Source: Malacoraja senta (Eukaryota). Taken from it: a DNA stretch of 64,000 nucleotides. The translations under genes and the position numbers were made by a program. Where the stretch lies: the NCBI GenBank assembly GCA_038087875.1, contig CM075994.1, positions 868,001 to 932,000 on the forward strand. The letters are read 5' to 3'. Shown piece by piece: positions 16,428 to 51,537 of the stretch (positions are counted from its first letter, which is position 1; every line of letters starts with the position of its first letter). The notes under the pieces are model-generated. The model was not told where the DNA came from, did not search any database, and saw only the letters and a list, made by a program, of their open reading frames with translations.

Positions 16428-17240
16428 TGCACATCCACTTACTTTGGCGGATGTGCAGGAGTGGGCGCCGTTTGTATGGCCGCCTGCCTGCAGTCCATCC
16501 TCTAACTCTTTTATTGTCTGAACATTTATTTTTTGGAGTCTATTCTTTCTATGTGGGGGGGGGAACTGTTTTAACCCCAGTCCTACCTGGTCAGAGATGC
16601 GGTTTTCCTCCAAATCGCGTCTCCGGTCTCCCCATGCGGCCTTCCATCGGGCTGGAACGGCGATTCCTGCCGGGGACCACAGCTTCGGCGGCACAGCGCT
16701 GGGACATCAGCAGGGAGCGGGCGATGCCTTGCCGGGTCGCCGCTCCGGAGTGCTGTGGCCGCCGACCACCAACATCGGGCAGCCGCAGTCTGCGGTCTGC
16801 GGTTTGAGGGCGACACCGCGGAGTCGAGGCTCCAACCGGCGCGGCCTGAAATCCACGGGCGTCGCAGTCTCCGGGGAAGGAGCGGCCGCTCCAGACATTT
16901 TCAAGCTGCTGAGGACTTTTCCACCCGATGCGGGTGGGCAAACAACATCGGGCTGCCGTTGCGGCGACTGGCTGCAGTGGCCTCAAACTGGCCCCGACCT
17001 CGGGTGGACTAGGAGGAGGAGGAGGACTGGACATTTTGGTGCCTTCCCTCACAGTGGAGAGTGGAGATTCTACTGTGGGGGGATGTTCGTGTTTGTGTAA
17101 AATCTCTTATAGTGTGTTGTCATTTTTTCTATCTCTTTTTATTATTTGTATGGTTAGTAACTGTAAAGCACTTTGGCTTTTGATTCAAATCATTTGGAAA
17201 ATGTGCTATATAAATAAACTTATTATTATTATTATTATTA
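16428..17240 (+). mobile_element. GC-rich non-autonomous retroelement with L2-type tail, inserted in a CR1 fragment
   Basis: Body homologous to 34824-35700; tail tgtaaagcactttgg...tgtgctatataaataaa followed by (TAT)n, matching the L2 tail near 7620-7690. Confidence 0.75.
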
Positions 17241-17339: not shown

Positions 17340-20300
17340 CGGGGAGAAGGCAGGAGAATGGGGCTTGGAGGGAAAGATAGATCAGCTGTAATACAATGGC
17401 GGAATAGACTTGATGGGCCGCATGGCCTAATTCTGCTCCTATCCCTTATGAACTTACAAACGACCGGTTTTCTTGTCCTCCCCCCCCCCATCTAAGCACG
17501 GGACCTCCCTTGGCCTGTGTGACTGTCATCTCTGTCTCTGCTGAACTACACCCACACAGTTAGTTTTGTTTTCCCTGTCCTGCTGAGATTCTCTGCATCA
17601 GATTCCATCCGTAACAACAAAGCATGACTCAGGAGCCTGCCTCCTCCCTCCCTGTGTCCCTCCCCCTCTGGCCTTGAACGGATCTGCCTTCAATCACGGT
17701 TGGAGATACAGCACGGAAACAGGCCCTTTAGCCCACCCAGTCCGTGCCTTCCGGCAATCCGGAATGAGTGGTTTACCTATGATGAACGTTTGTCGGCACT
17801 GGGCCTGTACTGGCTGGATCACCCGGTGGCCCCAACAATGACTGCCGCGCCAAAAGTCTGTCTGCCCTTCCTTCTTTGTTGTTTGATAGTATGTGTTAAT
17901 TGTATATTATAGTGTTCTTTAGTTTACATGATGTTGGAGGGTGGGGGAGGGGAAACCTCGTTTAATCTCTTACCCTGACGGAGATGCTATTTTTTTCCGT
18001 ATCGTATCTCCGTCCGCACTGCGGCCTAACATCGAGGAGTTGGCGGCCTTTGCTGAGGACCGACTTCAGGAGCTCCAGCCACGGGAGCCTGCAGGACTTA
18101 ACATCGTGACGCTTGCGATGCCTGGCCTCGAGGCCGACTTCGGGAGCTCCAAGCCGCAGGAGATTCGACCGCCCCGACGTGGGAGCTTTGATCGCCCCGA
18201 CATGGGAGCTTCAACCACCAGCTTTGGAAGGTTCGAGTGCCCCGACAGGAAGGCAGGAGAATGGGGCTAGGAGGGAGAGATAGATCAGCTGTGATTGAAT
18301 GGCAGATAAGACTTGATGGATTGAATGGCCTAATTCTGCTCCTATCCCTTATGAACTTACATACGACAGGTTTGCTTGCCCCCCCCTCCCTCCATCTCGG
18401 CACGGAACCTCCCTTGGCCTGTGTGACTGTCGTCTCTCTGTCTCTGCTGAACTACACCCACACAGTTAGTTTTGTTTTCCCCGTCCTGCTGAGATTCTCT
18501 GCATCAGATTCCATCCGTAACAACAAAGCATGACTCAGCAGCCTGCCTCCTCCCTCCCTCCCCCTCTGGCCTTGAACAAATCTGCCTTTTATCACGGTTG
18601 GAGATACAGCACGGAAACAGGCCCTTCGGCCCACCGAATCCGTGCCTACCGGCATTCCGGAATGAGTGGGTTTACATATGATGAGTGTTTATCGGCACTG
18701 GGCCTGTACTCGCTGGACCACCAGGTGGCGCCAGCAATGGCAGCAGCGCCAACAGTCTGTCTGCCCCTTCCTTCTTTGTAGTTTGATAGTATGTGTTAAT
18801 TGTATGTCTTAGTGTTCTTTCGTTTATATAATGTTGGGGGGCAGGTTGGGGGAAACCTTGTTTCATCTTTTACCTCGACAGAGATGCAATTTTTTACCGT
18901 ATCGTATCTCCGTCCACACTGCTGCATAACATCGAGGAGTTGGCGTGCTTTATTGAGGACCAACATCTGGAGCTCCAGCCACGAGAGTCTACGGAGTTTA
19001 ACATCGTTGAGCTCGCGTTCTAGAGGCCGACCTCAGAGCTCCAACCACGAGAGCCTAAAGACTTTAACATCGTGGAACTCCGTGTGCGGACGTGGCGTGG
19101 AAGACCGAGAAGCCGAAGCGAAAAAGTGGAAGCCCTATAACCGAACGGAAACAAAGCCGAAAAGCCAAATAACCGAAAGCGTACGAAGCCGAAAAGCCAA
19201 ATAACCGAGAGGGCGCGAAGCCGATAAACCAACTAACCGAAAGTGCAGGACGCCTAAAAGCCAACTCACCGAAAGCCGCAATTCCGAAACGCCAACTCAC
19301 CGAGAGGCCCCAATGCCGAGAAGCCAACTCGCCAAAAGGTCGCAAAGCCGAAATGCCAGATAATGGACATGACGTCGCCAGGGGAGTGGGACTTGTCAGC
19401 GATTGGTCCAGACCCCCGCACCATCAATTCACTGGCCGGAGGAGATGGGAGGGTGGGGGTCACTTCCCCCACACAAGACCACCCGGGGCTAGAGGGTGAC
19501 TGGGCACTCTGAACCCGAGCACCAAGTGTAAGCGGCTGAAGGAGCGCAGGGGTCTGGACCAATCGCTGACAAGTCCAGCCCCCCGGCGGCATCATGTCTG
19601 TTATTTGGCCTTTCAGCATTGCGCCCTTTCGGTGAGTTGCCTCTAAGCGTTGGGGCCTTTGGGTGAGTTGGCGTTTCGGCATTGCGGCCTTTCGTTGAGT
19701 TCGCTTTAGTCATCCCACCCTGTCGGTTTGTTGGCTTTTGGGCTTCGTATGCTTTCGCTTATTTGGCTTTTCGGCTTCATACGATTTTGGTTATTTGGCT
19801 TTTCGGCTTTGTTTCCATTCGGTTATTTGGCTTCCACTTCTTCGTTTATGTGAAGGAGCTATCGCTCCTTCGACGCCACATCCGGGTACCTTGGAACTCG
19901 CTTGAGACCGATTTCGGGATCTTCAAGCCGCAGGAACTTCGACCGCCCCGACACGGGAGCTTCAACCGCCAGCTTCGGATGGTTCGAGTTCCCTGACAGT
20001 GGGAGAATAAGGAGGTAGAAGTTTGGACTTTATTGCCTTCCATCACAGTGAGGAATGTGGGGAATCCGCTGTGGTGGATGTTTATGTTAACTTTTATATA
20101 GCTGTGTGTCTTGTTTTTTTTTTAGTATGGCTGTATGGTAAAACGAATTTCACTGGACCTTAATTGGTACTTGTGACAATAAACTAACCTTGAAATCTGG
20201 AACCTTGAAAGAATGGGGCTAGGAGAGAGAGATAGATCAGCTGTGATTGAATGGCGGAGTAGACTTAATGGGTCGCATATCCTAATTCTGCCCCTATCCC

Positions 20301-23413: not shown

Positions 23414-23739
23414 AGTCCCACCACGGTCATTCCTTCTCTCCCCTCTCCCATCCGGCAGGAGTTTGGTTTAGTTTGGTTTAGGTTAGTTTAGTTTATTATT
23501 GTCACATACAGTGAAAAGCTTTTGTTTGCATGCTCTCCAGTCAGAAAAAAGGGGTTTAGGGAATGGTTTAGAAAAGGCAGAAGAATGGGGTTTAGTTTTG
23601 TTTAGTTTTGTTTATTGTCTCGTGTGCCGAGGTACAGAGAAGAGCGTTTCTGTTGAGTGTTATCAAGTCAGTGAAAAGACTATACGTGATTACAATTAGA
23701 CCGTCCACAGTGCGCAGATGAAGGATAAAGGGGACAACA

Positions 23740-26655
23740 ATTAATGCAAAACATAACATTAAAGTCCGATAAAAGATAATTCAAAGGTCTCTGAGGCACA
23801 GAAGCTTGAAAGCACGCACCACCAGACTCAGGAACAGCTTCTTCCCCTCTGTTATCAGGCTTCTGAATGGTCCTTCCGTAAGTTAGGGTGTTGTCCGATT
23901 CACCTCTACCCCATTGCGGACATTGGACTGTATATCTGGATCCGTTACGCTACGATGCTGAGAACTATGTTCTGCACTCTGTATCTTTCCCCTTTGCTCT
24001 ACCTATTGTAATGGAATGTGGCTTCTTTGTATTCATGTACAGCAGAGTCATAGAGTGATGCAGCATCGAAATAGGCCCTTCGGCCCAACGCCCACACTGA
24101 CCAACATGTCCCATCTACACTAGTCCCACCTGCCTGCGCTTGTTCCGTATCCCTCTAAACTTATTATATCCATTTACCTGTCTAAATGTTTCTTAAACAA
24201 AGCGATAGTTTCTGCTCCACATGTTTTTAGTTTAATTTAGAGACACAGTGCGGAAACAGGCCCTTCGGCCAATAGCGTCCGTACCGGCCAGCGATCACCC
24301 CACACACACACACTAAGGACAATTGACAATTTTTACCAGGCCAAATAGCCTACAAATGTGTATGTCTTTGGAGTACGGGAGGAAACCGGAGCACCCTGAG
24401 AAAGCACATGCAGGTCACGGGGAGAACGCACAAACTCCGTACAGACAGCACCCTTAGTCAGGATCGAACCCAGGTCTCTGGCGCTTTGAGGCAGCAACTC
24501 TACCGCTGCGCCACCATGCCGCCGCCGTGTTTCTTCAATGTTGTGCATGGTGTAATATCTGATCAGTTTGGATAGCACACAAAACAAAAGCTTCACCCTG
24601 TATCACAGCACACATGACAATAATAAACCTAAACCTGTCCCAAACTTTAACACACAGATTTTTCTCCATCCCACCCATTACATACAATGTCAACGGGGCT
24701 TTTTCTCACACTTCCAATTTCTGACATAATCTCTACTTTCTGTTTTCATTTCTCGCATTTGTGGGGTTTCGTTTAACTCAATTGAGGAAGTGGTGAAGGT
24801 ATCTGAACGGTCAGTAGAGTTTCTATGACTCTATAGAAACAGAGAAAATAGGTGCAGGAGTAGGCCATTCGGCCATTCGAGCCAGCATCGCCATTCAGTA
24901 TGATATTGGCTGATCATCCTAAATCAGTTTCCTGTTCCTGCTTTCTCCGCATATCCCTTGATTCCGTTAGCCCGAAGACATAAATGTAACTCTCTCTTGA
25001 AAACATCAGTGAATTGGCCTCCACTGCCTTCTGTGGCAGAGAATTCGACAGATTCACAACTCTCCGGGTGAAATAGTCATAGTCATAGAGTGATACAGCA
25101 TGGAAACAAGCCCTTCGGCCCAACTTGCCCGGTATATGTGACAATAATAAACTAAACTAAACTAAATTAAACCACCCTCATGTCCTATCTACACTAGTGC
25201 CACCTGCCTGCATTGGCTTCATATCCCTCCAAATCTTTCCTATCCATGTACTTGTCTCAATGTTTATTATATGTTGGGATAGTTCCTGCCTGAACTACCT
25301 CCTCTACCAGCTTGTTCCATACTACATTTAATGCAAAATATAACGTTAAAGTCTGATAACGTCCGATTAATGATAATTCAAAGACCTATGAGGTACAGAA
25401 GCTTGAAAGCGCGCACCACCAGACTCAGGAACAGCTTCTTCCCCTCCGTTATCAGGCTTCTGAACGGTCCTTCCGTAAGCTAGGGTGCTGTCCGATTCAC
25501 CTCTACCCCATTGCGGACATTGGACTGTGTCTCTGGAACTGTTACGCTACGATGCTGAGAACTATATTCTGCACTCTGTATCTTTCCCCTTTGCTTTACC
25601 TATTGTACTGGAGTGTGGCTTGATTATATTCATATCCAGCAGAGTCATAGAGTGATACAGCATGGAAACAGGCGCTTCGGCCCAACTTGCCCATATCGGC
25701 CAACATGTCCCATCTACACCAGTCCCACCAGCCTGGGTTTGCCCCTTTTCACTCCAAACTTGTCCTATCCATGTACCTGTCTAAATGTTTCTTAAACGTT
25801 GCGATAGTTTCTGCTCCACATGTTTTTAGTTTAGTTTAGAGACACAGAGCGGAAAAAGGCCCTTCGGCCCATCGAGTCCACATGGCCCAGCAATCACCCC
25901 GTACACACACACACTAGGGAAAACTGATCATTTTTACCCAGCCAATTGGCCTACAATTGTGAACGTCTTTGGAGTGTGGGAGGAAACCGGAGATCCCAGA
26001 GAAAACCCATGCAGGCCACGGGAAGAACGTACAATTGCCGTACAGACAGCGCCCATAGTCAGGATGGAACCCTAGTCTCTGGCGCTGTGAGGCAGCAACT
26101 CTACCACTGCGCCATCCTGCCACCACCCTGTTTATTAAACGTTGTGCATTACCTCATCTGTTTGGATAGCACGCAAAACAAAATCTTCACCCTGTATCAC
26201 AGTATTCATGACATTAATAAACCTAAACCTCTCCCAAACTTTATCACAGAGATTTCTCACCACCTCACCCATTACATATGATGGCCACGGGGCTTTTTCC
26301 TCACATTTCCAGTTCCTGTGGTAAAATCTACTTTCTGTTTACAATTCAAGTATTTGCAGGGTTTCTTTTAATTCAATTTGGGAAGTGGTGAAGGCATAGA
26401 GACCTACAGTCATAGAGTGATACAGTATGGAAACAAGCCCTTCGGCCCAACTTGCGCGGAACATGTGATAATAATAAACTAAACTAAACTAAACTAAACT
26501 GAACTGGCCAACATGTCCCAGCTACACTAGTCCCACCTGCCTGCGTTTGGCCCATATCTCTCCAAACCTGACCTATCCATGTACCTGTCTAAATGTTTCT
26601 TAAACGTTGGGATAGTCCCAGCCTCAACTACCTCCTCTGGCAGCTTGTTCCATAC
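23740..26655 (+). repeat. Diverged tandem segmental duplication (about 23740-25325 vs 25326-26655)
   Basis: Same order of Rex tail, CR1 tail, SINE and a unique block (24622-24802 vs 26216-26397). Confidence 0.85.
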
Positions 26656-34823: not shown

Positions 34824-35700
34824 TTAGTAAAGTAAGTAAGTACGTTTTATTTATATAGCACGTTTTAAGTCAACTCACATTGACACCAAAGTGCTTTACA
34901 TAAAATAAATAATAAGTTTCCATACAAACCATAGAAAAAGGTTAAAAAAGAAAAAATGGACACAACATATTATAGAGTTCAACACAAACGTCCCCCCCAC
35001 AGCAGAATCAAAATTTTCCACTGTGTGGAAAGGCACCAGAAAGTTCAGTCCTCTTCGTCTGTGAAACACCCGAGGTCGGGGCCCATTTGTGGCCTTGCAG
35101 CCAGTCCGATGATTTTCGGGTGAAACATTCCTCAGCTGCTTGGAAAGTCTGGAGCGGCCGCCTCCTCCCCGGAGACCGGGGCACCCGAAGTCCTCAGGCC
35201 GCGTCGGATTGGAGCTCCGACCCCAGCGAACTCGATCCCAGGCTCCGCGGCACTCCAAATCCAGCGCCGCCTGCAGCCGGACGCCCGCAGCCACAGCTCC
35301 TTGATGTTGCAGTCGGCGGCCACAGCACTCCGTAGCTTACCGCACGGCGACCCGGTAAGGCATCGCCCGCTCCCTGATGGCGTCCCAGCGCTGTAACGCC
35401 GCCGAAGCTGTAGTCCCGGCCGGTCCAGACAGGAAACGCCGTCCCAGTCTTGATGGTAGGCCGCGAGGAGGGGGCGAAGAAGCAGCTCGGAGGGAAGCCG
35501 CCTCTTCGACCAGGTAGGGGACTAAGAAATAAAGTTTCCCCCTTCCCCACCCCCACCCACCACATAAAAGACCTCCAACTGAATTTTTTTTGACAGGACT
35601 AAGAATTTAAAATAAAAAAGGTGAACAAACGGACTGTGGGCAGGCTGCCATACACAGACGGCGCCCACTCCTGCACATCCGCCATCTTGAAGCACCCGGA
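34824..35700 (-). mobile_element. GC-rich non-autonomous retroelement with L2-type tail nested in L1
   Basis: Homologous to 16428-17240; tail tgtaaagcactttgg...tgctatataaataaa followed by (TACT)n. Confidence 0.8.
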
Positions 35701-37250
35701 GAAAAAAAACTGACTGAGTTTCTATTCATACATTCGTCTAATATATCTGGCAGCAGAGTTTGATAGTCATGGGTATATGTTTTCAAATAGTCTCGAATTT
35801 GAAGATATCTAAAATATTGATTACCTTTCAGGTGGTATTTCGACTGTAATTTCTGAAATTACACAAGATTTCCCATCTCGTAGAGATCTCGGTTTTTTAA
35901 TTCCTAGTCTTTCCCAATAAGTAAACGTTTTATCTATAATAGATGGCTTAAACAAAGGGTTATTAGCTATTGGTGAGAGAAGAGATAAATTTCTTAGTTT
36001 AAAAGTTGATTTTACTTGTCTCCAGATTTGTAAAGTGCTATGAATAATCGGATTTTTTATCATATAGTGTGTTCTTCAACTTTGTTGGGGAGAGAAGAAT
36101 CGCGCCTATATTAAAAGGCGAACAATCCTCTCTCTCCATTATTAACCAGTCTACCTGTTGGCATGCGTTATCCAGCCAGTAAATTACATTTTAAATATTC
36201 GTTGCCCAATAATAGTATAAGAAATTGGGGAGAGCCAATCTGACCGTTTTTTGGGGTTTGCATAAATGTTGTTTATGAATTCTATGTGTTTTATAATCCC
36301 AGATAAAGTTTGTAATCCGAGAATCAAGATTTAAAAAAATAATTTAGGTAGGTATATCGGTATTGATTGAAATAAATAGAGAATTTGTGGGAGGAAGATC
36401 ATTTTTATAGCATTTATTCTGCCTATTAGAGACATCGGAAGTAACTAAAGGCGGGAAGTTTGCGTTGAATAAAGAAGTATATTTTCTGGTTACCTGAACA
36501 CCCAGATATTAAAAATTTTCCATAGCAATTCTGAAAGGGAATTTTAAAAGGTGTGTCAGCTCTTGAGGTTTTATTGCCATAATTTCACTTTTGTTCCAGT
36601 TTATTCTATATCCTGAAAAGAATTCCTCTATAAGATTTAATATATTTGGAATGCTACCTTGGGAATTGGTGATATATAATAATACATCATCTGCATATAA
36701 TGATATTTTATTATTGGAGTGTTTAGTATTATAGCCGTGAATGTTCGGATGTACTCTTATACTTTCCGCTAAGGGTTCAATCACAAGGGCAAATAACAGG
36801 GGTGATAATGCACATTCCTGTCTATTGCCCCTGGATAGCTGAAATTTAGGAGAGAGTATGTGATTACTCAGTATTCTGGCAGCGGCTTATATAATAATTT
36901 TATCCATGAAATTAAATTCTCTCCCATCAGAAATGTTTGCAGTACTGTGAAAATATACTTCCATTCTACTTGGTCAAATGCCTTTTCTGCATCTAATGAA
37001 ATAATTGATAAGTCTTCTTTAGTTCTGTATGAGTACATTATGTTAAAAAGGCGTCTCAAATTATTAAACAAATGTCTCTTGGGTATAAACCCCGTTTGAT
37101 CCGAATGATTTAATTTATTAACGTATTTACTTAATCTTCTTGCCAAAGTTTTCGCTAATATTTTCTGATCTGTATTTAGCAGGGCGATTGCTCTGTATGA
37201 TCCCAGGTCTTCTAGATCTTTATCTTTTTTGGGTATAAGTGTGATAGTTG

Positions 37251-40200
37251 ATTTTACTTCGGAGTCACGTGAGTGACTACGTGAAGAACCCCGCCAGTGC
37301 GCCTGCGCGTCATTACGTCAGACGCATTGGCGCAAACGGACGCGAGGAGCAGAGCTCTAGTGGAATAGTAGTTTTCAACTACAAGGTAAGTATAAACTTT
37401 TTGGAAGTATTTCTGTGTCCGTTTGCTGTGGGTCTGTGGGGATTTTTTCCACAGGCATCATGGAAAAAACGGGCAAGTGTAGGAGGCGAGCGGCACAGCC
37501 GGTATAAAGTCGCAATATTGCGGTCGGCGACCAGCCGCCTCTGACCACGGTACAGTCGACAGCATAGCAACTGTGGATATTGGGGCTGAAGGGAATTTAG
37601 TCAGCACCAGTGGGGCAAGGCAAAGCCGATAAAAAGCTGCGGGAATGCGGTCGGTAAAGGACTGCCTCATACCCTACAACAGTCGCCGGCTGGGAGCGGG
37701 GAGAACTGTGGACTTGTGCATTAAAGAACGGAGCCAGCGTCAGTTGGGTGCTAGGCAACATACAAGTCAGGGTCATGGAGCAAGAGTCAGTTTAGGATTC
37801 ACCTCCAAGGCTGGATACCATTTCTGAAGTGGATATTCCAAATGGAGAACCTGTACACAGGTTGCTCCAACGAAACATACTCCAGGAGGAGTGATGTCAG
37901 AACCAGGCTCCAGAAGCCAGGTCAGCAGCACCTAGTATAGGGCTGCTTGATAGCTCTCATTGATGAGGCGCGTGCACAGGGTCAGCAGAGTTTCCAAAAT
38001 AAGCGAAGACGGCAGCTGCCAGATGGGCTATTCCTGGCAGTACGATTTGCTGCTCTGTGAGAGTTCTGACCCTGAGTCTGACGGTGAGGCCGATACAAGC
38101 GAAGACGGCAGCTGCCAGATGTTTTATTCCTGGTAGTACGATTCGCTGCCCCGTCAGAGTCAAGAGAGCCACTGGAAAGGACGTAGTCTCTGTGATCAAC
38201 TATTGTGTCTACCATCAGCTCTAGTAGTTTACGATGGATGAAAATGCCAAAAAAGCACGATATCCCAAGGAACTGCGTATTGCTGAAAGTACTAGCAGTG
38301 AACCAAGATAAGGGGTCAGATGGGCGAAGGCATGTAAGCCTAAGGAAAGTAAACTGCAGAGACTATTGAAGCTGCTCGGTTGATGAACAACTGCAATTTG
38401 CAAAACAATGGATGGAGGCCATGGATGGAGATGCATCAAGTGGCACTAAGGTTGCTATGTAGCGCCCACTTCAAGATGAATTGTTTCAGGAAGTATACCA
38501 TTCGGTCCACCATCAACCCAAAGTTGCAGCAACTCTGTAAAGCCCAGCAATGTGCAGTCATTCAACTTATTCTTCAGAGAAACTTCACGAATCGTGGGAA
38601 AGAGTTGGATAATGAGGCAAAAACAGCAAAGTTGATCACAACATCAATGGTCGTCAAGTCTGCAAAGAGGACGTATCCTTTCAGACATCATACAAAATCC
38701 TGGACCGACATCAGGATCAAATCGACCATTGAAGCAGGTACTCAGTTGATGTCCTGCAGCAGGAAAACGAAAAAGCGTGGGTTTTGCCTGCCAGGAGCCA
38801 GGGACCACAGGTGACTCAGATGACAAAGGAGGTAGGTGGACCTGGTTCTTATGGGAACATATTAAGGCAAAAACAGCCAAATATTGGAAGCAAATTACTT
38901 CAGTTATTATTCTGAGTATTATAGAAAGGTTTCTAATTGATTCGATTCAAATACTGATTTGCCATCCAGCATGTTCCAAGGAGAACACTCCAATTTCACA
39001 TAAAAATAATTGATGGAGGTTCAAGCTGAATTGAAAACTTGTTTGTAAACAAGTAATTGAAAGGTCGGTTTATCAAAACCACCAAATTGTGTTTAAAATT
39101 TCTCAACCTAAAAAGGTGAGGAGTATTTTAGATCTGACAAGTCTTTAAAATTTTGTGAAGTATAGACACTTCAAAATAGAGACTTTGAGACTGCCAAACA
39201 ATTTATTTCAAAAAATATGTTTTATGGCACTTATAGATCTGAAAGATGTATATTACTTAGTGTTTGTTCATTTATAAGATAAAATTATCTAAAGGAACAA
39301 TTATGGCAATTCAAAGTTCTGTCTAACGGGTTAACTTCAATCCCTAGAAATTCACTAAATTGGTAAAACCAATTTTTGCGGCTAATTAGAGTCCAAGGAC
39401 AGATGTGGATGGCTTAACTGGATGATGTCCTAATTAGGACGAATAAGAGAATTCGTGAGTTATCTCTCTCAAATTATTCAAACCACTTTTGAAAGTTGGG
39501 TTTAATTCATCCAGAGAGAAATTAAGTTAACGATACTTACAACAATTGATTATTTGATTCAATTGAAAAGGTAGTAATTTACCCAGGGTAAAGGGTAAAG
39601 CTAATTGATGGTTGTATTAAGCAGTTGGAAAAGCAACAATCTTCAATTAAGACAGGTGGCCAGCTTGTTAGGAGAATTAGTGTTATTTCCAGCAATACAA
39701 TATGGGCCATTGGACTACCAGCAGCTGCAGACTGCAAAAAGAAAAAACACTGAGATGCATGATGGCCATTTTTTGATAGGCCATGCAATTAAACAACAAA
39801 TGCTGCCTCTGATTGTAGTAGTGGATTTAACATGTCTTCAGTAGTTCAAGCAAGATACGGATTGAACAGCCTACCATGGTCTTAACAGACTGATATCAGT
39901 GTACTAGGATTGGTGCCACTGAAAAGGTATCCATCTGTGGACAGATGGAATATGGAAGAAGTATTATTTTACAGACATGGAGAATCGACGTTTTAAAGTA
40001 TATTGGAAGGCTTATGAGCTACAAGCTTGTTGTTAAAGACAACTAATCTGCATGTTCAGTTTCAAATTGACAACGCTACAGCAATGGCATGTATTAATTG
40101 TATGGGTGGAATTCCCATGATAACAAAGAATGGATGTTTATCCTTGAGATTTTTTAAGGATATAATAGTCAGATTTGTGAAGCCAGATATGACTTGTTTC

Positions 40201-41990
40201 CATCCAGACTCAATCACCAGTTACAGAGATATGTGTTATGGGACTACACCGGGAGACAGTAGCGATGGATGTTTCTCGCTATATTGGGATGGTATGTTGC
40301 TATATACATTTTACTTCATCCTGTCTCATAAATCGGTGTCTGCTTAAAACGAAGCAGTATGCTGCCTCTGGGGTATTCGTGGTACCAGACGGGTCTACGC
40401 AGCCTTTGATATTGGAATTTATGACACAGTTTCTGATAAATGTTCCCAAAAGCAGGAAGTTACTGGTGTATTCGATAATTGGAGAGTAACATCCGTCATA
40501 TGCCTGTATGGATGCAGGTTTTAAAAAAGAGGATTGTCTGGGCATGCTGAGGACATGCTTACAGCAGTCTGGCGGAAGAGTACTCAAAAGCAGTACATTT
40601 GTGAATCTGAGTTGTGACTCTGTAAATACTGCTTTCCCATTATGTAAAGAATGAGGGGGAAAAATTTCTGTGTATAAAAGAATATGGAATGTTGTACGGC
40701 ACATGTCTCAAATATCTTGGATTGACCTCTATTTAATGGGTTGAGGTATAGTGCGATTTATTCACACAGAAGTATATTATTCCTCGTTTTTATTTGATGA
40801 GGTTGGAAAGACATCCTGTTGAGTCTCGTTCCTTTATTTCCAGATTAATGAAAGGAATTTTAATTCCAGACCTTCTAAACCTAGGAGGGAATCTGGAATA
40901 TAGAATTGTTTTAAGCTACTTCATCAAAGGAGTCTTGGTACGATTCTGATTTGGCTAAGTTCAGCATGAAGGTAGTCATGTTTATGGCACTTGTAACATT
41001 ACAAAGTTACAGATACACAGAAGTACCTCAGGATTATGTTATGTTTTATATTTTATGAACTACTCAAATGAAGTAGGATCAGGTGTGACAGGATTCAAGA
41101 TTGTTTTATTAACATATTCTATGGATCCATGTCTATATGTTAAGACATATTTATTGCAAAAAATTGAGGCTACAAAGATCTTATGAAATATGAAAACAAG
41201 ATTGTTTATCATTCACGAAAAACCATACAAGATAGTGTCAGTTTAGACTATTTTAAGATGGTTAAAAACAAGTTTTGGTTGCTGCACGTGTGAACATTGA
41301 TGGTTTTACATTCCATTCAGTTTAGCAGCAACATTGACGACCAGGGCGAAAGAGGTCCCGTCGATCATATTCTCACAGCCGCCGGGTGATCTAATAAGTT
41401 GGTGTTTCAACACTTTTACCATCGGGCTATTGCCAATACGGGGCTGTTTGCAGATACTATATTAAGTTCTGCTTAATTTTCCCTGGGTAAAGGGGATACT
41501 ATTAATTCTTTTATTCAAATAAATGAATTACTGCATTTGTGGTACAAATGTTATTATTAATGCATTATTGAATATTCTCGTTCCGAGTCAATCAATGCAG
41601 AGAGAAGCCGGGATTTGTCTGCGGCATGAAATCATAAAGCTTTAAAATCTTCACGTAGTCACTCATGTGACTCCGAAGTAAAATAGTAAGATTAAACGAG
41701 AACTTACCTAAGTTTGAAGTTTGATCTTTATTTTATGAGGAGTTACGTTGGTGATTACGTGCCCACCACGACCCAACCCTCTATCATAAAGGTCAGATGG
41801 AAGTTCTTGTATTATTCGTTTTATTATGATACTATATTACTTCGCTTGTTTTTTGTGATTTCACACCGCTGCTTCGAAGATTGACGCGCAGGCGCACTGG
41901 CGGGGTTCTTCACGTAATCACCAACGTAACTCCTCATAAAATAAAGATCAAACTTCAAACTTAGGTAAGTTCTCGTTTAATCTTACTATT
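37251..41990 (+). mobile_element. DIRS1-type tyrosine-recombinase retrotransposon (complete termini, decayed ORFs)
   Basis: ITRs 37278-37312 / 41882-41916; ICR 41648-41761 complementary to both ends. Remnants of RT (ILDL, HFKIETL, DLKDVY, LDD; about 39110-39560), RNase H (about 39880-40110), methyltransferase-like (about 40170-40420) and YR (ILRWLKQVL, FTFHS, AG*S...FQHFYHR; about 40700-41475). Confidence 0.95.
41648..41761 (+). repeat. DIRS internal complementary region (ICR)
   Basis: First part is the reverse complement of the left end from 37251 (1 mismatch); second part is the exact reverse complement of the right end up to 41990. Confidence 0.95.
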
Positions 41991-44649
41991 CAGCTAGTGT
42001 TTGTGGTAATGTCTGTTCTTTAAATGCGTATGTATAAAGATTGTGTAAACGTGGGGAAATTACCTTGTAAAATTATTTTATAAAATTCGTTACTGAACCC
42101 GTCTGGTCCTGGTGTTTTACCGTTCTTCAATGAATTGATTGTCTCTTCTATTTCTTTAATTGAAATCTGTGCTCCTAATTCCTCTTGTTCCAGCGGATTG
42201 AGTGTTGGAAGTTTACAGTTGTCCAGAAAGTTTGTAATTTTTCTGCTTTCTGTTGATGTTTTGGATGTGTATAAGTTTTGATAAAATTGGACAAATCTTT
42301 CATTAATGTCTTTTGGAAGCGTTAACAGTTCACCTTTATCTGATTTAATTTTTAGGATAGTCTGGTGCTTTTCAACTTTTCTCAGCTGGCGTGCTAAAAG
42401 TTTGTGTGGTTTGTCGCCGAATTCGAAATGTTCCTGTTTTGTAATTTGAAATAATCTAGCAACTCTTGCAGATAGAATTTGGTTTAGTTTAAATTTCAAT
42501 ATTGCTATCTTGTTGTGTTTATCTATAGTCGCATCTATTGCATTTTCTAAATCAAGTTGTCTGATCTGTTCTTCTAGTTGCAATTGTTCCGTCCTATTCT
42601 TTTTATTTTGATAAGCTTGATATGAAATAATAGAACGTCTAATAAAAGCCTTAAAAGATTCCCATAATAGGGAGGGCGAGATATCTGAGGTATCATTGGT
42701 CTAAACAAAAAGTTCCATCTGTTGTTTTAAGTATTTGCAACAGTCCGGATTATTTAGTATTTGAGGATTAAACCTCCAAAACGATTTTTTATTAAATATT
42801 CCTTCTAGTTTTAAGGAGAAGGTTAGCGGAGAATGATCGGAAATAGTGCTATTATGGTATTTAGGGTTAGTTGTGAAGGGTATTAATTTAGTGTCCACTA
42901 GGAAGTAGTCAATACGTGTATAGGTTTTATGTACTGATGAGTAGAAGGAGTATTCTCTTCTGGCAGGGTTTGCAATCCTCCATACATCTGTTATATTTGT
43001 ATTTTTATATATGTATTTAAAAGTTCACTGGATTTTGATTTTGTATTATGTCTCTTTTGTTGGGCAGATTTATCGAGGTATTGATCCAAAACGCAATTGA
43101 AATCTCCCCAGATTATCACATTTTGCTGAGTGGACTCAGAAATTATATTCAAGATTTTATTTTAAAATTGTGGGTTGTCAAAGTTAGGAGCATAAATATT
43201 TACCATGATAAGTGGGGTAGAATGTATCTCCCCAGAGACTATGACATACCTCCCCTCTTTGTCTGCAATGGTGTTTTTATGTTTAAATGGTATGCCCTTA
43301 CGGATTATAATTGCAGTGCCTCTGGATTTGGAGAGATAGGAGGAATGATATGTTTGACCGATCCAATTGGCCTTCAGCCTGGTCTGAGCTTGAACTTTAT
43401 GATGTGTTTCCTGTAAAAATATTATGTTGGCATTGAGTGATTTAAATTGGGCAAGAATCTTACCCCTTTTAATTGGCTCATTAGAGCCCCTAATATTCCA
43501 GCTACAAAACGTAATTCCTCCAGTTTTCTTTGGAGGGTCGTCTTGCATTGTAACTTACATTGGTTCCATTATTTCAGATGGTGCAACACAACAACTCAAC
43601 CTCCCAGTTTCTGAACTCTGTCGGTATATCCCAAAGGTGCCCTATAGAGAAAAAGCGAAAAAGGTGCTAAATAACATAAATAATATAAAAAAACAGTATT
43701 TAGAAATACTGTGTGAAACCACCAAATGGTGGAAGAATTTGAGTAATCTTCCGTAGACGTAGATTACATTTAGCTCCGCTCCTTACAAACTAGTATTATA
43801 GAAGAGAAAGAACAGGCCAGAACCGGATAATATATTCGCAGAAAAAACAACCAAGCCTGTACTATAAGTAGTTCATCTAATAGGTTAAACTAAATAGATA
43901 TTTACTGTTTAAATGCTGTATTTAAATTAAAATATATATTTTTTAACTTATTAATAATCCTCATATTTAAGTAACAATCATCTGGCTGGAGGGGGTTAAC
44001 TGAGAACTGAATCTTGAATCCGCGTCTTGGCTGCCTGCCAGGTTCTTCTCAGGCTCTCTTTTACTGGCTCCTGACAAGCTTGGATGATTCTCTGTCGGTT
44101 TGGCCGACCGTTTCTGGAAATTTGCCCACACAAATCGATTAACCATATTTTTGATATATACCGATACAATGAACCTTAACTAGAGGTAATAAATCTAGAA
44201 GTTATTCAGTGTTAGCTTAAAAGGAATGAATCATTATTTGGTTATGACATTACGTTTTAGGTTAAAATAAATGATTTAGTACAATTATTTATGTGTTAGT
44301 GATATAATTGATTATATAATTTGTTGGTAGATTATTACATTCCACTCCGTTTAATTTGTTTTTTATACTGCATGATTCCAGTTTCTTGAACCTTTCTTTA
44401 GTAAACACGACGGCCTTGAACATTCTATCCGCTTACGTTCCAATCCATCCCTGATAAGGTGTCTAGACATTAGCACGTGCGAGTTAGTCGGCCATCTTAT
44501 CTGCAACTTTTATATATCTTTTTATGTAAAGAAACATATTCTCTCAATCTACCCCTTATAAATATATATAAAAGGTATACATTAAACACGTGGTTTAATC
44601 CACGAAATCAGCAAAGCCGTAGCATTCTACTTATCCTTTAGAGTCCTTT

Positions 44650-45658
44650 TTAAAAGTCTTGTGCGTATTTGAATGCGGCTACTGGGTCAATAAAGAAACG
44701 CTCCGAGTCATTATATATGACCCTCAGTTTGGTGGGATACATTATTCCATATGTCAGGTTTGGGATTCCTTTAAGAATCTGCCGGGACTTCGTAAAAAGG
44801 GCACGTTTCTTCGCCACCTCTGCCGGGTAATCTCTGAATAATCTTACACTTTCTCCTTCGAACATCAGATTTTTTCCAATTGTCACTTTCTTCATAATGT
44901 CTTCAAGAACTGCTGTGTCGTTAAGTTTCAGGATAATCTGTCTTGGTGGAGCTCCGACCCCTGAGTATGCTCTCTGAACTTGATGTGCAGCATCAACTTT
45001 GGGTCTTTCAGAGAGACTGAATACTTGTTGAAGTAAGTTGGCAGTGAAAGCCCGAGGGTCTATTCCAGTTTCCTTCCCTTCTTTCACTACAACAATTCTT
45101 AAGTTTTGCCGTCTGGACCGGGCTTCAAGATCTAGACATTTGTCGGTCATTCTGGCCAGTTGCCCAGAAACTCGGTCTAGATCTTCTTTCATTCTTTGCA
45201 TCGCATCAGACATGTCCATAGTTGTAGTTTCCAGATCTTTAATAGCTTTGTTTTGTTCTGTTGAAGTAAGGAGAATGGGTTCCAGCTTTTTAGTGAGACC
45301 TTCTTCAACCCGTTTGATTTCTTCTCTTAAATCTGTATCTACTTCTTCAATACGATGCTGTAGAATACCGATCTTTTCACAAATATCATCCATTCTTGTT
45401 TCTAACTCCCAGCTGAATAGACAGCTTGGAAAGCTCCTTATTCAAAATCTCACCAAAGTCCTTTGCCATAGCTTTTCTTAAAGTTTGTTCTTTTTCTTTT
45501 ACTTTTCCTTCCATAACAGCAATAAATCTTTGTCCTTCAGATTCCTCCTCAGATTCTTCAGGTGTTGTTTGAGGTGTTGTTTTCTCTAATTCTTGAGCAA
45601 GCTTCAGTCTGGTTAGTGATCTTGTCTGGGGCACCGTCGGTAAAGTCCGTTTTTGCAT
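44650..45658 (-). pseudogene. L1 ORF1 (coiled coil + RRM), frameshifted near 45390
   Basis: LEARSRRQNLRIVVVKEG, FRDYPAEVAKKR, YPTKLRV motifs. Confidence 0.85.
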
Positions 45659-45836: not shown

Positions 45837-48800
45837 CTAGACTAAGTGGGATCCGTTGGGTCCCTGTGACACCGGGGGCATGGTCACCCAATGCAACCCG
45901 TTCCCCCAACGCAATATTCCACCACTCACCCATAGCCCCCGACTGCACATGCGCAGCTCATTTCCCCTCATCCCTCCCACTCTCTCCCCCTCCTCTTCAC
46001 CCTCCCTCTCCTATCCCCTCTCCTCTTCCCCTCCCCAATCCCTCCCCTCACCTCTCCCTCTCCTTTCCCTGACCCTCAGTCACTCCCTCCCTCCCTCCCT
46101 CCATAACTCCTCTCCCCTCCCTACCCCCTCCTATCTCTCTATCCCCCACCACCCGCACTCCCCTATCCTCCCCACTATCCCTCCTCACCTCCCCCACTGC
46201 CCTCCTCCCCATCTATTCCACACTCCCTACCTCCCCCCTCCTCCACTCCCCCCTCCTCTCCCTCTATTCCCCCAACTACACTATTCCCCTTCCTCACCTC
46301 TGCCCTCTTCATTTCCCTCTCCTCCTCCCCACCCCAAATCCATCCCTCACCTCTCCTTTCCTCTCCTTTCCCCTACCCTCAGTCACTCCCTCCATAATGC
46401 CTCTCCCATCGCTACTCCTCTCCCTCTATTCCCCCCTTCCCCCCCACTCTCCCTCTCCAGGATCTCGAGTTTGCAGGGTGAGGGGGGGGGGGGCAGGAGC
46501 CAGCGAGGGGGACCAGAGGATAAGCGGCTTGAACTACGGGACGTTGTAATGACGGTGCGCTTGGAACTAACAACGGGCGCTGGACGCTCTCCTCTGCCAA
46601 GATCAGATTCTGCGCTTTCCATTCGGCGACATCTCCCACGTCGGGCCATGCCCCTTCCAGTCCCTCCGAAAATTGTGTCTGGTTGGAGATATCCGGCGGC
46701 CATCCTCAGCTCCAATAAAGATGCGATGGCGCAGAAAGCGGTGGACCGTCGCGTGGAGTGACAGGAGTGAGTCCAATCCGCATGGCGCTGACTGGCAGGA
46801 GATGAGATCGATCTGCGCATGCGCGATTTTTATACTCGCTAACTTTCTCATAGACCACCGATCGGAACGACACTTGGTGCACACGCAGCACAGGAGAACG
46901 GCGCAAATAGAAAAAACGCACAAACTGGAAGAGCACAAGATCAGAGTTTTAGTTATGTACTAGACCAAGTGGAGACACGATGGGTCTGTCCCCCAACGCG
47001 TGGTGGGGGGGCGTGCTGCAGCTCCACAGGCACACTAACCACTCCCACACACAGATGGGATGTGGTAGAGGGGGGGTGAGAGGGGGGTAGGGGGAGATGG
47101 GGTGGAGGGAGGGGAGGGAGGGGAAACCGGTGGGTCCCGTACCCTCAATGTGCGGTTGCGGGGGAGGAGGGTGGGGCTGCGGCTTCACACGCACACTAAC
47201 CACCTCCCACACACACAGGGGAGGGGATGGGGGAGTTTGAGAGGGAGACGGGGAAAGGGTGGGAAGGGGGAGGGAGAGAGGGGAGAGAGAGAGAGGGGGA
47301 GGGGAGGAGGGGGCAAGAGAGGAGAGGGGAGAGAGGTGGGGAGAGAGAAGGTGGGGAGAGAGGAGGGAGAGAGAGGAGGGGAAGTGGCGAGAGAGGGGGG
47401 GAGAAGAATGGGGGAGGGGAGAGGGGGGAGAGGGGGGTTGGTGGGGGATAGAGGGTGAGAGGGGGGTTGGAGGGGAGGAGGGTGGAGGAGGGGAGTAGAG
47501 GAGGGGAGATGGGTGGGGGGCAGAGGGAGGGGGGGGCAGAGGGGAAGGGGGGAAGGGGGGAGAGAGTGGGGAGGGGGAAGAAGGGAGGGGAGAGGGGGAG
47601 GGAGTCCCGTCCATTCTACGCACGGTTGCGGAGGGGAGGTTGCGGCGTCACACACACACTGACCACCACACCGCCCCCCCATACACACACTAACCACCCC
47701 CAATACGCACACTAACCACCTCCCCAATACACACACTAACCATCCCCCCAACACACACACTAACCACCCCCCAACACACAGACTAACCACCCCCCCAATG
47801 CACACACTAACCACCCCCCAACACACACACTAACCACCCCCCCACTAACCACCCCCCTCCCCCAACACACACACACACTAACAACCCCCCTTCATATTAT
47901 ATTAATATTATTCATTTTCTCCTTTTATCCCATCCCCACCCTATCTCGAGGGGCAAAGAGAGTGGGGCAGAGAAAGAGAGAGAGGGAGAGGGAGATGAGG
48001 GGAGAGCGGGGGGCAGAGGGGTGTAGAGGGAGGGGGTGGAATGGAGTGGTGGGGAAGAGGGGAAGATGGAGAGGGAGAGAGGGGGAGAGGGGGTGGGGAG
48101 AGAGGGGGTAGGGAGGGGGAGGAGAGCTGGGAGGGGGAGGGGCGCAGAGAGGGGCAGGGAGGAGGAGGGGGTGGAGGAAGGGTGGATGAAGGAGGAAAGG
48201 GTGAGAGGGGGAGGAGGGGAGATGGGGAGAGGTGTGAGCAGAGGGGGAGAGAGGAAAGGGGGGATGAGAGAGGGGGAGGAGAGAAGGGGAGGAGGAAGGG
48301 TGGAGATGGGGAGACATTGGGGGGAAGAAGAGGGGGGAAGGGAGAGAGCGAGAGATGGGGAAGAGAGCGGGGAGGGGGAAAGAGGAGAGAGGGGTAGAGG
48401 TGGGGAGGGGATGTGAGAGTGGTGGGGGAGGGGAGGAGAGGGGATGGGGGAAGGGGGAGAGAGGGATAGGGGAAGGGAGAGGGGGAGGGGGAAGATGGGT
48501 GGGGGAGAGGGTAGAGATGGATGGGGGAGGGGAAGAGTGGGCAGGGACGGGGAGAGGGGTGGAAGGGGAGAGAGGGATGGGGAGAGGGGGAGGGTGGAGG
48601 GGGGAGGGATTTGAGAGGGGTGAGGGGAGAAGGGTGATGAGGGATGGGTGAGGAGAGAGGGGTGAGGAGAATAGGGAATGGTGGCGAGAGGGGGGAGGAG
48701 AGGCGGTGAGGAGAGAGGGGGAGAGAGGAGTGAGGAGAGAGGGGTGAGGAGAGAGGGGTGAGGGGAGAGGGTGGAGGAGAGAGGGTGAGGAGAGAGGGGT

Positions 48801-51337
48801 GAGGAGAGAGGGGTGAGGGAGATGGGAGGAGAGGGGTGAGGAGAGAGGGGAGCGGGGTAGGGGAGGGGAGGGGGAGAGAGGGGGATGAGGATGGAGAGGG
48901 GAGGAGAGTGGGGACAGTGAAGGGGGAGACAGGGGAAGGGGGATGGTAGAGGCGGGAGGGGGAGAGAGACAGGGGTGAGGGGTGTTGAGAGGGGAAGGGG
49001 GAGGGGAGGAGAGAGGAGAGGGGGAGGGGTGGGGGAGGAGAGGAATGATAGAGGGGGAGGGGATAGAGGGGGAGGGGGGAGAGGGGGTGGGAACAGGGGG
49101 AGGGGAGAGGAGAGGGGAGGGGAGGGGAGAGTGGGAGGGGAGAGGGGAGAGGAGAGGGGGGAGAGTTGGAGGGGGAGGAGAAAAGGAGGGGGAGAGGTGG
49201 AGGGGGAGAGAGAGGAGAGGGAGAGGGGAGAGGGAGAGTGAAGAGCGGGAGAGAGAGAGGGAGAAGGGGGAGAGAGAAGGGGAGAGGGAGAAGGGGGAGA
49301 GAGAGGGGGCAGCGAGAGAAGGGGGAGAGAGAGAAGGGTGAGTGGGGGAAGGCTGGGGTGGAAGGGAGGGGAGAGAGAGAGAGGGGACAGAGAGAGTAGA
49401 GGGGGGAGAGGAGAGGGGGAGGGGAGAGGGGGAGAGTTGGAGGGGAGAGAAGAGGAGGAGAGAGTTGGAGGGGGAGAGCAAAGGAGGGGGGGAGGTGGAG
49501 GGGGAGAGGTGGAGGGGGAGAGGTGGAGGGGAGAGTTGGAGGGGGAAAGGAGGGGAGGGGGAGGAGAGAGGAGGGTGGAGAGGGGGAGGAGAATAACAGG
49601 TAGTGGGTGGAGGAGGAGTGGAGGGGGGTAGAGGGGAGGGGGGGAGAGAGGAGGGAGTATAGAGGGTGATAGAGGTGGGGGAGAGGGGGGTGGAGAGGTG
49701 GGAGAGAGATGGTGGGAGAGAGAAGTGGGGAGAAGGATGGAAGGGGGGAGGGAGAGTGAAAGTAGAGGGGAGAGAGAGAGAGGGGTGAGAGAATAGAGGG
49801 GTGAGGGGGAGGGAGGGGGAAGAGGAGTAGGGGAGGTGGAGGGGAGAGACGAGGAGGGTGAGAAGAGGAGGTGGAGGGGGGAGAGGCGGTGGGCGGAGAA
49901 GAGGAGGGGGAGAGGTGGAGGTGGGAGAAGAGGGGATGAAGGAGAGGGGAGGGTGGAGAGAGGGGGGATGGGTAGTGGTCGGGGGTGGAGAGGGAGGGGG
50001 TAGATAGGGAGGGGGGTAGGACATCTTGCTCTATTTGATTTTATTTGATTGCACGCCAGGTTGTTCCCTCATTGCATTCGTGGACCACGTGAAGGTTCCA
50101 ATCTCCCACACCTGTCCCATTGTGCTATCATATGTAAATAAAGATCCATTGTGATTAGACATCTGTGAGATGGCACTGTGACTCGTGCAGCAGCTTGATT
50201 TTATTTTTTTTGATGTTTATATGATAATTAATTTGATAATAATTAATGATAATATGATAATTAATTTGATGATAATTTATAACCAAATATTCTAATTTTC
50301 AAAACAAAATGTGGAGGAGGAAAAAATCTACAGCAATATGTAAAAATTTCTCCGTTACGGCAAAGGGTGGAAGAGTAAATCCACAAACGCCTTAAACACA
50401 TTTTCGCGAAATAGAACCCGTTACAAACCAACAAACCAACAAGAGTTTTAATAGTTACTAGACCAAGGGGGACCCGTTGGGTCCCGTCCCCTCAACGCGT
50501 GGTTGCGGGGGGGGGGGGGGCTGTGGCGTCACACACACACTAACCACCCCCAACACACACAGTGAGGGGGGTGAGAGAGGGGGAGGGTTGTGAGAGAGGT
50601 GGGGAGGGTTGTGAGAGAGGTGGGGGTGAGAGGGGGGAGGTGGAAAGAGGGGGGGCTGGAGGAGGGGAGAGAGAGGAGGGGGAGAGAGTGGGGGGAGGGG
50701 GAGAGAGGGGGAAGGGGGAGAGAGACGGGTGTGGGGGGTAAGGGAGGGGAGGGGGTGAGAGGAGGAAGGAGAAAGTGGGGAGCGGGTGAGAGAGAGGGAG
50801 GGGGTGAGAGTGGGGAAGGGGATGAGAGAGGGGAAGGGGGGGCTGGGAGAGGGGGAGAAAGAGGAGGGGGTGAGGGGGAGAGAGGTGGGTAGTGTGTGCT
50901 TAGGGAGGAGGAGGGAGGGGGAGGGAGGTGGAGGAGGGAAAGAGGGTGAGAGGGAGGAGGGGAAAGGGAGGAAGAGGGGAGGAAGAGGGTGAGATAGGGG
51001 GAGGGCTGGAGGAGAGATAGGGGAGAGGGGAGGATAGAGAGGAGGGGGAGAGAGGCGGGAAGGGGGATGTGAGAGAGAGGAGGGGAGAGAGGAGGGGGAG
51101 ATGGAGGAAGGGGAGAGGGAGGAGGGGAAGAGGGAGGAGGAGAAGAGGGAGGAGGGGGAGAGAGAGGAGGGGGGTGAGGGCGGAAGGGGGAAGAGAGAGG
51201 AGGAGGGGGGCTGAGAGGGGGAGGGGGAGAGAGAGGACGGGGAGAGAAAGGAGGGGGAGAGAGGGGGGTAGAGGAGTGGTGAGAGAGGAGGTGGGGAGAG
51301 AGGAGGTGCGGAGAGAGGAGGTGGGGAGAGAGGTGAC
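45837..51337 (-). mobile_element. Cluster of non-autonomous Helitron-type elements with low-complexity interiors
   Basis: Three minus-strand 3' ends of the form hairpin GGGACCC-aac-GGGTCCC, 7 nt, CTAG|T at 45837, 46960 (degenerate) and 50458; related AT-rich ...TAAAACTCT starts. Confidence 0.7.
47945..50020. repeat. Polypurine G/A-rich low-complexity tract (related tracts at 45960-46460, 47040-47610, 50560-51337, 52670-52975, 53170-53895)
   Basis: Direct observation; source of the spurious Pro-rich and Gly-rich ORFs. Confidence 0.95.
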
Positions 51338-51537
51338 NNNNNNNNNNNNNNNNNNNNNNNNNNNNNNNNNNNNNNNNNNNNNNNNNNNNNNNNNNNNNNN
51401 NNNNNNNNNNNNNNNNNNNNNNNNNNNNNNNNNNNNNNNNNNNNNNNNNNNNNNNNNNNNNNNNNNNNNNNNNNNNNNNNNNNNNNNNNNNNNNNNNNNN
51501 NNNNNNNNNNNNNNNNNNNNNNNNNNNNNNNNNNNNN
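51338..51537. other. Assembly gap (N run)
   Basis: 200 N. Confidence 1.

Follow-up and report, generated by a model that had tools for sequence, protein, structure and literature searches.

A 64,000-nucleotide stretch of Malacoraja senta DNA (contig CM075994.1, positions 868,001 to 932,000; hereafter the window) carries a DIRS1-like retroelement inserted into the second open reading frame (ORF2) of an L1 element, and in this insertion well-preserved ends enclose three dead ORFs. The copy was probably long dead before it moved, mobilised in trans by the reverse transcriptase (RT) and tyrosine recombinase (YR) of a working relative, with its ends reset via the internal complementary region (ICR). 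According to this model, a DIRS1-like copy whose genes had long been dead would be transcribed, and the transcript would be copied and integrated by the RT and YR of the working relative. Both ends would be rebuilt from the ICR and the right inverted terminal repeat (ITR) during copying, thereby resetting their identity. The resulting cDNA circle, with ATT at its junction, would then recombine at the one ATT of an L1 ORF2 that had decayed mildly, so that the inserted element came to be flanked by ATT left and right. Both the YR catalysis and its action in trans we infer from the sequence. A previous sequence-only reading of the window had described a complete DIRS element; this is accurate for its structure and not for its coding capacity, as gag, the RT-RNase H-methyltransferase ORF and YR are all ruined. 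That reading had also not noticed the three dead ORFs, which are at odds with the fresh ends.

The features of the element and its host are listed in Table 1. Both junctions lie where they had been placed earlier, with TTG followed by ATT on the left and ATT followed by CAG on the right. The terminal repeats are inverted rather than split direct, the ICR pairs with both outer ends and has a 3-bp junction overlap, a right extension (rE) is present, and the termini consist of the junction trinucleotide (ATT/ATT) with no longer target-site duplication. The internal coding plan agrees, with remnants of an RT-RNase H ORF bearing a Dam-like methyltransferase and of a YR ORF downstream of pol. The split or terminal direct repeats of Ngaro-like, PAT-like or VIPER-like elements were not found, the ends being inverted and ICR-paired. 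By structure the feature is thus DIRS1-like, its core is the 3-bp ATT, and its ICR points to a circular cDNA intermediate that would have been integrated by a YR. The sole mismatch of the left ICR (41666 versus 37269) is a CpG-type transition. The hairpin of the right ICR and right end folds with a z-score of -19.6, and a 24-nt motif from the ends has two occurrences in the window versus none in 100 shuffles. No second copy of the element was found within the 64-kb window, the exact end motifs had 0 matches in viral and metagenome contigs, and an Rfam search found nothing. Of 24 public sequencing runs listed, 23 contain part of 36300-43200 (best shares 0.50 and 0.45, with 21 small shares of 0.11-0.13), none of them listed as RNA; no evidence is drawn from these shares.

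Table 1. Positions in the window of the DIRS1-like element, its parts and the L1 that hosts it.
Feature	Position	Strand	Remark
DIRS1-like element	37251..41990	+	4740 bp, both ends present, coding-dead
Left ATT core	37251..37253	+	
Left ITR, 62 nt	37251..37312	+	first 37 nt pair with left ICR; 37288-37312 pairs 25/25 with right ITR
Internal duplication of 96-nt period, gag region	37994..38160	+	copies differ at 8/64 positions
gag-like ORF1 remnant, broken	38123..38700	+	part alignable to ORF1 of L079 and L072
RT-RNase H-adenine methyltransferase ORF remnant	38850..40495	+	~40 codons lost near 40115
YR ORF remnant	40530..41470	+	
Left ICR	41648..41684	+	complementary to left end 37251-37287 at 36/37
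Circular junction AAT	41682..41684	+	overlap of both ICR halves
Right ICR	41682..41761	+	complementary to right end 41911-41990 at 80/80
Right ITR	41882..41942	+	
rE, 48 nt	41943..41990	+	terminates in right ATT core 41988-41990
Host L1 ORF2, 3' part (RT)	35715..37250	-	3 stops and 5 frameshifts in 494 aligned codons; ends at ~residue 1049 of 1264
Host L1 ORF2, 5' part (endonuclease, linker)	41991..43519	-	2 stops and 2 frameshifts in 506 codons
Probable L1 ORF1, 263 aa	44650..45441	-	

All three ORFs of the element are dead. In what follows, L001-L079 are 79 metagenome loci of intact relatives, taken from the best 80 of 501 confirmed matches; the loci are assembled repeat contigs, several come from the same families, and they are not fully independent. 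The pol region is colinear with relatives' proteins bearing RVT_1, RT_RNaseH and Dam, and its decay amounts to ~12-16%. Per ~480 codons it contains 9-17 stops and 8-14 frameshifts when measured with nine references under two penalties; the five best later references put the load at 11-15 stops and 12-20 frameshifts. A stop codon occupies the Tyr of the RT Y-L-D-D motif (39415-39417). The YR remnant, identical at 105 of 292 aligned residues to an ORF of L055 that itself matches Phage_integrase at 1.7e-8, has 8-10 stops and 5-9 frameshifts in ~295 codons. Among its catalytic residues the first Arg segment is lost near 41000 and both Arg positions are gone, H-S-V is followed by a stop or frameshift (41323), the Trp position is a stop (41387) and the Tyr is retained (41417). 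With lesions in every ORF and the catalytic motifs of RT and YR broken, this is not an autonomous element. Direct Pfam searches of 27 stop-free pieces and of 9 read-through frames detected no DIRS domain, a word-based search with the broken RT yielded 0 of 13 candidates, and protein-led scans of viral contigs found nothing; a library-wide search returned 342 relatives. The internal duplication in the gag region is, judged by the divergence of its copies (8/64), older than the element ends.

The element ends, the host L1 and the DIRS pol constitute three discordant clocks. The ends show 1 mismatch in 142 paired positions (80+37+25), a pairwise difference with a 95% interval of 0.02-3.9%. The host L1 has accumulated 12 lesions in ~1000 codons (36 bases unaligned) and retains 233 of 265 invariant residues (d ~0.05), corresponding to a decay of ~3-5%. 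The DIRS pol retains 88-94 of 133-140 invariant residues (d 0.14-0.16), a retention that differs from that of L1 (Fisher p 4e-5 to 8e-7), and its lesion density is 3.1-5.1 times that of L1 (p at most 0.002). As a control for the lesion counter, simulated intact pol gave 0 false lesions, and the observed load was reproduced at d 0.12-0.16. With the same script, the 10 relatives that have both ends showed 0-4 ICR mismatches and 0-2 pol lesions. Given d 0.12, the probability of at most 1 mismatch in 142 positions is 9e-14, and for the 62 long-range pairs alone it is 7e-6. Moreover, of the 34 ICR columns with a conservation of 90% or more across 22 relatives, the window element retains 33 (p 0.04 at d 0.14).

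Because a nested insert cannot decay in place for longer than its host L1, the copy was probably coding-dead before it moved. The published model of DIRS replication has both ends re-copied from the ICR and right ITR in each cycle, so that one event would suffice to give new-looking ends on an old body. The DIRS-1 RT acts in trans in Dictyostelium, where the ICR is required (PMC7192593). Several points weigh against mobilisation in trans. The case for it rests on one copy, whose best intact relative is 42% identical; neither another copy sharing its lesions nor a working partner in this host was found, and in Dictyostelium a truncated construct completed no scored transposition cycle (PMC7192593). 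The DIRS references are 35-42% identical versus ~54% for the L1 references, which may inflate the DIRS lesion count, and the 10 intact relatives had been selected as top matches of an intact protein, which biases this control towards intact ORFs. The conservation of the ICR is non-significant when measured against the 3 or 4 closest relatives (59/67, p 0.39; 43/47, p 0.19). Finally, the window target has G at position -1 but CA at +1/+2, unlike the T at +2 of the relatives' targets, and this difference is unexplained.

The discordance of the clocks could also arise if an old autonomous insertion had decayed in place, its ends being homogenised later by gene conversion or hairpin repair and its L1 flanks refreshed from younger L1 copies. 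The right ICR and right end, a very stable hairpin with arms just 149 nt apart, would be a plausible substrate, and the non-significant ICR conservation against the closest relatives suits this history as well. However, the long-range pairs lying 4.3-4.6 kb apart are also identical at 61 of 62 positions, the host L1 is ~3-fold less decayed on both sides over ~3 kb, and several independent conversion events would be required, which leaves conversion an unlikely explanation. Slightly less likely again is that hypermutation or error-prone copying damaged the body of a recent insertion, either as it inserted or later, or that the body was mis-assembled from a collapsed repeat or noisy reads, the element having been autonomous when it moved. 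The 200-N gap in the window marks a scaffold assembly, and the pol region is CpG-poor (observed/expected 0.39) and TpG-rich (1.25), as damage of this kind might leave it; yet the lesions are mixed, comprising stops, frameshifts, a ~40-codon deletion and a duplication whose copies differ at 8/64 positions, and they are far fewer in the ends and flanks of the same stretch.

The host L1 also gives access to the empty target site. Separate translation of its two flanks gives LPQTLAE and STITLIPK, and a gapless LPxTLxEAxITxxxK spans the insertion segment in 13 of 18 L1 ORF2 relatives; a search for the pattern found nothing in the other 5. Since zero, one or two copies of the core would all preserve the frame, a single ATT is shown only by the relatives' register, from which the pre-insertion site carried ATT once, not zero or two times. 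The statement in the sequence-only reading that removing the element restores the ORF2 frame is true locally; elsewhere ORF2 contains 5 stops and 7 frameshifts, the nearest at ~42073. Beside the core, circle and target match at 0 of 10 left-hand and 3 of 10 right-hand bases and differ at both -1 and +1, so that the shared core is exactly three bases. Both ICR halves contain and overlap on AAT, and therefore ATT is templated by the element itself. The proposal of the sequence-only reading that target, product junctions and circle junction have one 3-bp ATT core in common is supported.

In the clusters to which the L1 relatives belong, the members with names are teleost proteins, which points to a vertebrate host, probably a fish. 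The 263-aa ORF upstream of ORF2 is probably L1 ORF1, judged by its position and resemblance; Pfam gave no family above cut-off for it. Between it and ORF2 lies ~1.1 kb of AT-rich sequence (43520-44650), which may be a long inter-ORF spacer or contain another insertion. Where ORF2 breaks off at ~residue 1049 another repeat starts (34846-35715), 67% like 16445-17218.

The sequence-only reading had further called for ATT to be sought at both ends of other copies, and the metagenome relatives bear this out. A recognisable ICR with an ATT core is present in 40 of the 79 loci, making 41 ICRs with the window element. With 3 duplicate left ends, 1 duplicate right end and the right end of the fold-back contig L048 excluded, ATT was found at 28 of 29 left ends (the remaining one is GTT) and at 11 of 13 right ends (one ATA, one ATG), that is, at 39 of 42 scored ends overall. 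These counts bear on whether the two ATTs in the window arose as a common 3-bp target-site duplication, through integrase-like or repair-driven insertion with no YR crossover with a circle. At a perfect match the sequence left by such a duplication is the same as that left by a 3-bp crossover core, 4.6% of trinucleotides in the L1 flanks are ATT, and the circle has not been isolated, even in Dictyostelium (PMC7192593). A duplication is nevertheless highly improbable given an element that templates ATT in both ICR halves, the recurrence of the core in 41 ICRs and at nearly all relatives' ends, and L021, whose left ATT and right ATA are unexpected from duplication unless one copy later mutated. 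Contig L048 was considered as a circle junction seen in DNA and rejected, because it is a ~10-kb fold-back; this palindrome is centred in the element right end, 99.5% self-inverted, and probably reflects amplification or an assembly chimera at the ICR hairpin.

The crossover had been called exactly reconstructable, a claim that goes too far: the perfect ATT/ATT match leaves four possible positions, and with a perfectly matching site the crossover can be placed no finer than three bases. A finer view comes from ends with departures from the core. Together the 3 deviating relatives' ends and 8 rows of Table 3 in PMC3266345 (from which the rows with 2-bp junctions, AmDIRS1 and BfDIRS2, were left out) deviate at left position 1 (2 cases), right position 2 (6) and right position 3 (3), and none of the 11 at the second or third left position or the first right one. 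This pattern fits an A^TT exchange (p ~0.002 after allowing four splits); the three deviations from relatives are by themselves not significant (p 0.5), the GTT case lies on the chimeric contig L048, and no empty site was seen for these ends. We tentatively suggest that crossover occurs after the first core base, so that the target would contribute position 1 of the left end and positions 2-3 of the right end, and offer this as a lead, not a result. The target preference of the relatives extends beyond the core: the base at -1 is a purine in 26 of 29 cases and that at +2 is T in 13 of 13 (AT in 9, TT in 4). A homology of more than 3 bp was also considered, as A is common at -1 in the relatives; most of their circles carry A at this position too, and a preference for purines fits equally. 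A hairpin at the target was considered, as the six bases flanking the core are 5/6 self-complementary here; the relatives' flanks, inspected by eye, show none, and the resemblance was treated as chance. Within the literature covered, which did not extend to the main Goodwin and Poulter papers or Repbase and included papers in part, there was no report of the crossover position within a DIRS core, and the specificity of DIRS YRs had no experimental test as of PMC7192593. Deviating ends thus constitute a purely computational route to DIRS strand exchange and target preference.

A broader proposal, against which we lean slightly, is that the window element belongs to a multi-copy DIRS1 family, near full length but coding-dead and with ATT ends of the invertebrate type, which keeps spreading in a vertebrate on borrowed enzymes, with strand exchange fixed after core base 1 (N^TT), within an R-ATT-WT preference, and not across a 3-bp homology core. 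If true, such a family would be a natural demonstration of ICR-templated end repair and YR integration wholly in trans. Terminal identity in DIRS elements dates the insertion and is silent on the age or health of the genes; dead DIRS copies can therefore be recent insertions, which dating or annotation by ORF decay would misjudge. Within the same literature coverage, with the limits given above, there was no report of trans-mobilisation of a coding-dead DIRS of the ITR/ICR type in a vertebrate.

Elsewhere the window contains near-tandem duplications at 23734-26397 (~1.07 kb, 85% identity) and 17346-19044 (~0.8 kb), and a purine/pyrimidine-skewed low-complexity tract at 46000-51000 (GC skew up to 0.96) that adjoins the 200-N scaffold gap at 51338-51537.

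The mechanism given in the sequence-only reading is already in PMC3266345, where a 3-bp circular junction is formed by the overlap of the two ICR halves and integration is recombination with an identical genomic trinucleotide. ATT is the commonest end in that paper, and its Table 3 lists ATT/ATT/AAT in 10 of 28 elements. The model is repeated in PMC7192593, which reports that Dictyostelium cDNA is mostly linear and that inverse PCR for the junction failed. The mechanism is therefore the textbook one.

The closest counterparts in end architecture are the mollusc elements AcaDIRS1/2 (Aplysia) and LgDIRS1/3 (Lottia) of PMC3266345 Table 3, which share ATT/ATT ends and an AAT junction with the window element. 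Their rE is 48-49 nt (here 48), their conserved ITR 31-36 nt (here ~35), their ICR 39-45 plus 86-88 nt (here 37 plus 80) and their length 4.7-5.8 kb (here 4740 bp). They are annotated as representative, whereas the window copy is coding-dead and resides in a host with a teleost-related L1. Nearest relatives were ranked by alignment score only, and the only named ones are coral, brittle star and sea cucumber proteins; with a best identity of 42%, horizontal transfer from marine invertebrates is not claimed. Among the metagenome loci, L072 and L055 have an ICR of 36 plus 80-82 nt, like the window, and L072, L079, L064 and L055 share its order of gag, RT-RNase H-methyltransferase and YR, with pol only ~38-40% identical. 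They differ from the window in having targets with T at +2 and, in the two checked (L072 and L055), no pol lesions. The right ICR/rE DNA of L064, L072 and L079 is 88-93% identical to that of the window (41682-41741) over 52-69 nt. Such DNA identity despite ~40% pol identity marks the right ICR/rE as a deeply conserved cis signal.

Fish generally have DIRS elements (PMC4350176), and a caecilian has them in abundance (PMC8498967). Vertebrate DIRS1 elements (Danio-type; Xenopus, Anolis, Gasterosteus, Tetraodon) share the ITR/ICR/rE plan and domain order with the window element, but the 7 vertebrate rows of Table 3 in PMC3266345 start with TTT, GTT or CTT and have an rE of 26-34 nt and a conserved ITR of 102-148 nt, and Xenopus families end in TTT (PMC9210276), unlike the ATT seen here. 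The end architecture of the window element is of the invertebrate-like ATT type. Dependence on the proteins of an autonomous partner, as proposed for the window copy, has precedents in the non-autonomous YR retroelements TOC1 of Chlamydomonas (bioRxiv 10.1101/2022.06.16.496473) and SIRE of Trypanosoma (PMC6681497) and in the engineered trDIRS-1. TOC elements are grouped in PMC3266345 with the split-direct-repeat PAT elements, and SIRE and trDIRS-1 are truncated, whereas the window copy is near full length, with decayed ORFs between ITR/ICR ends.

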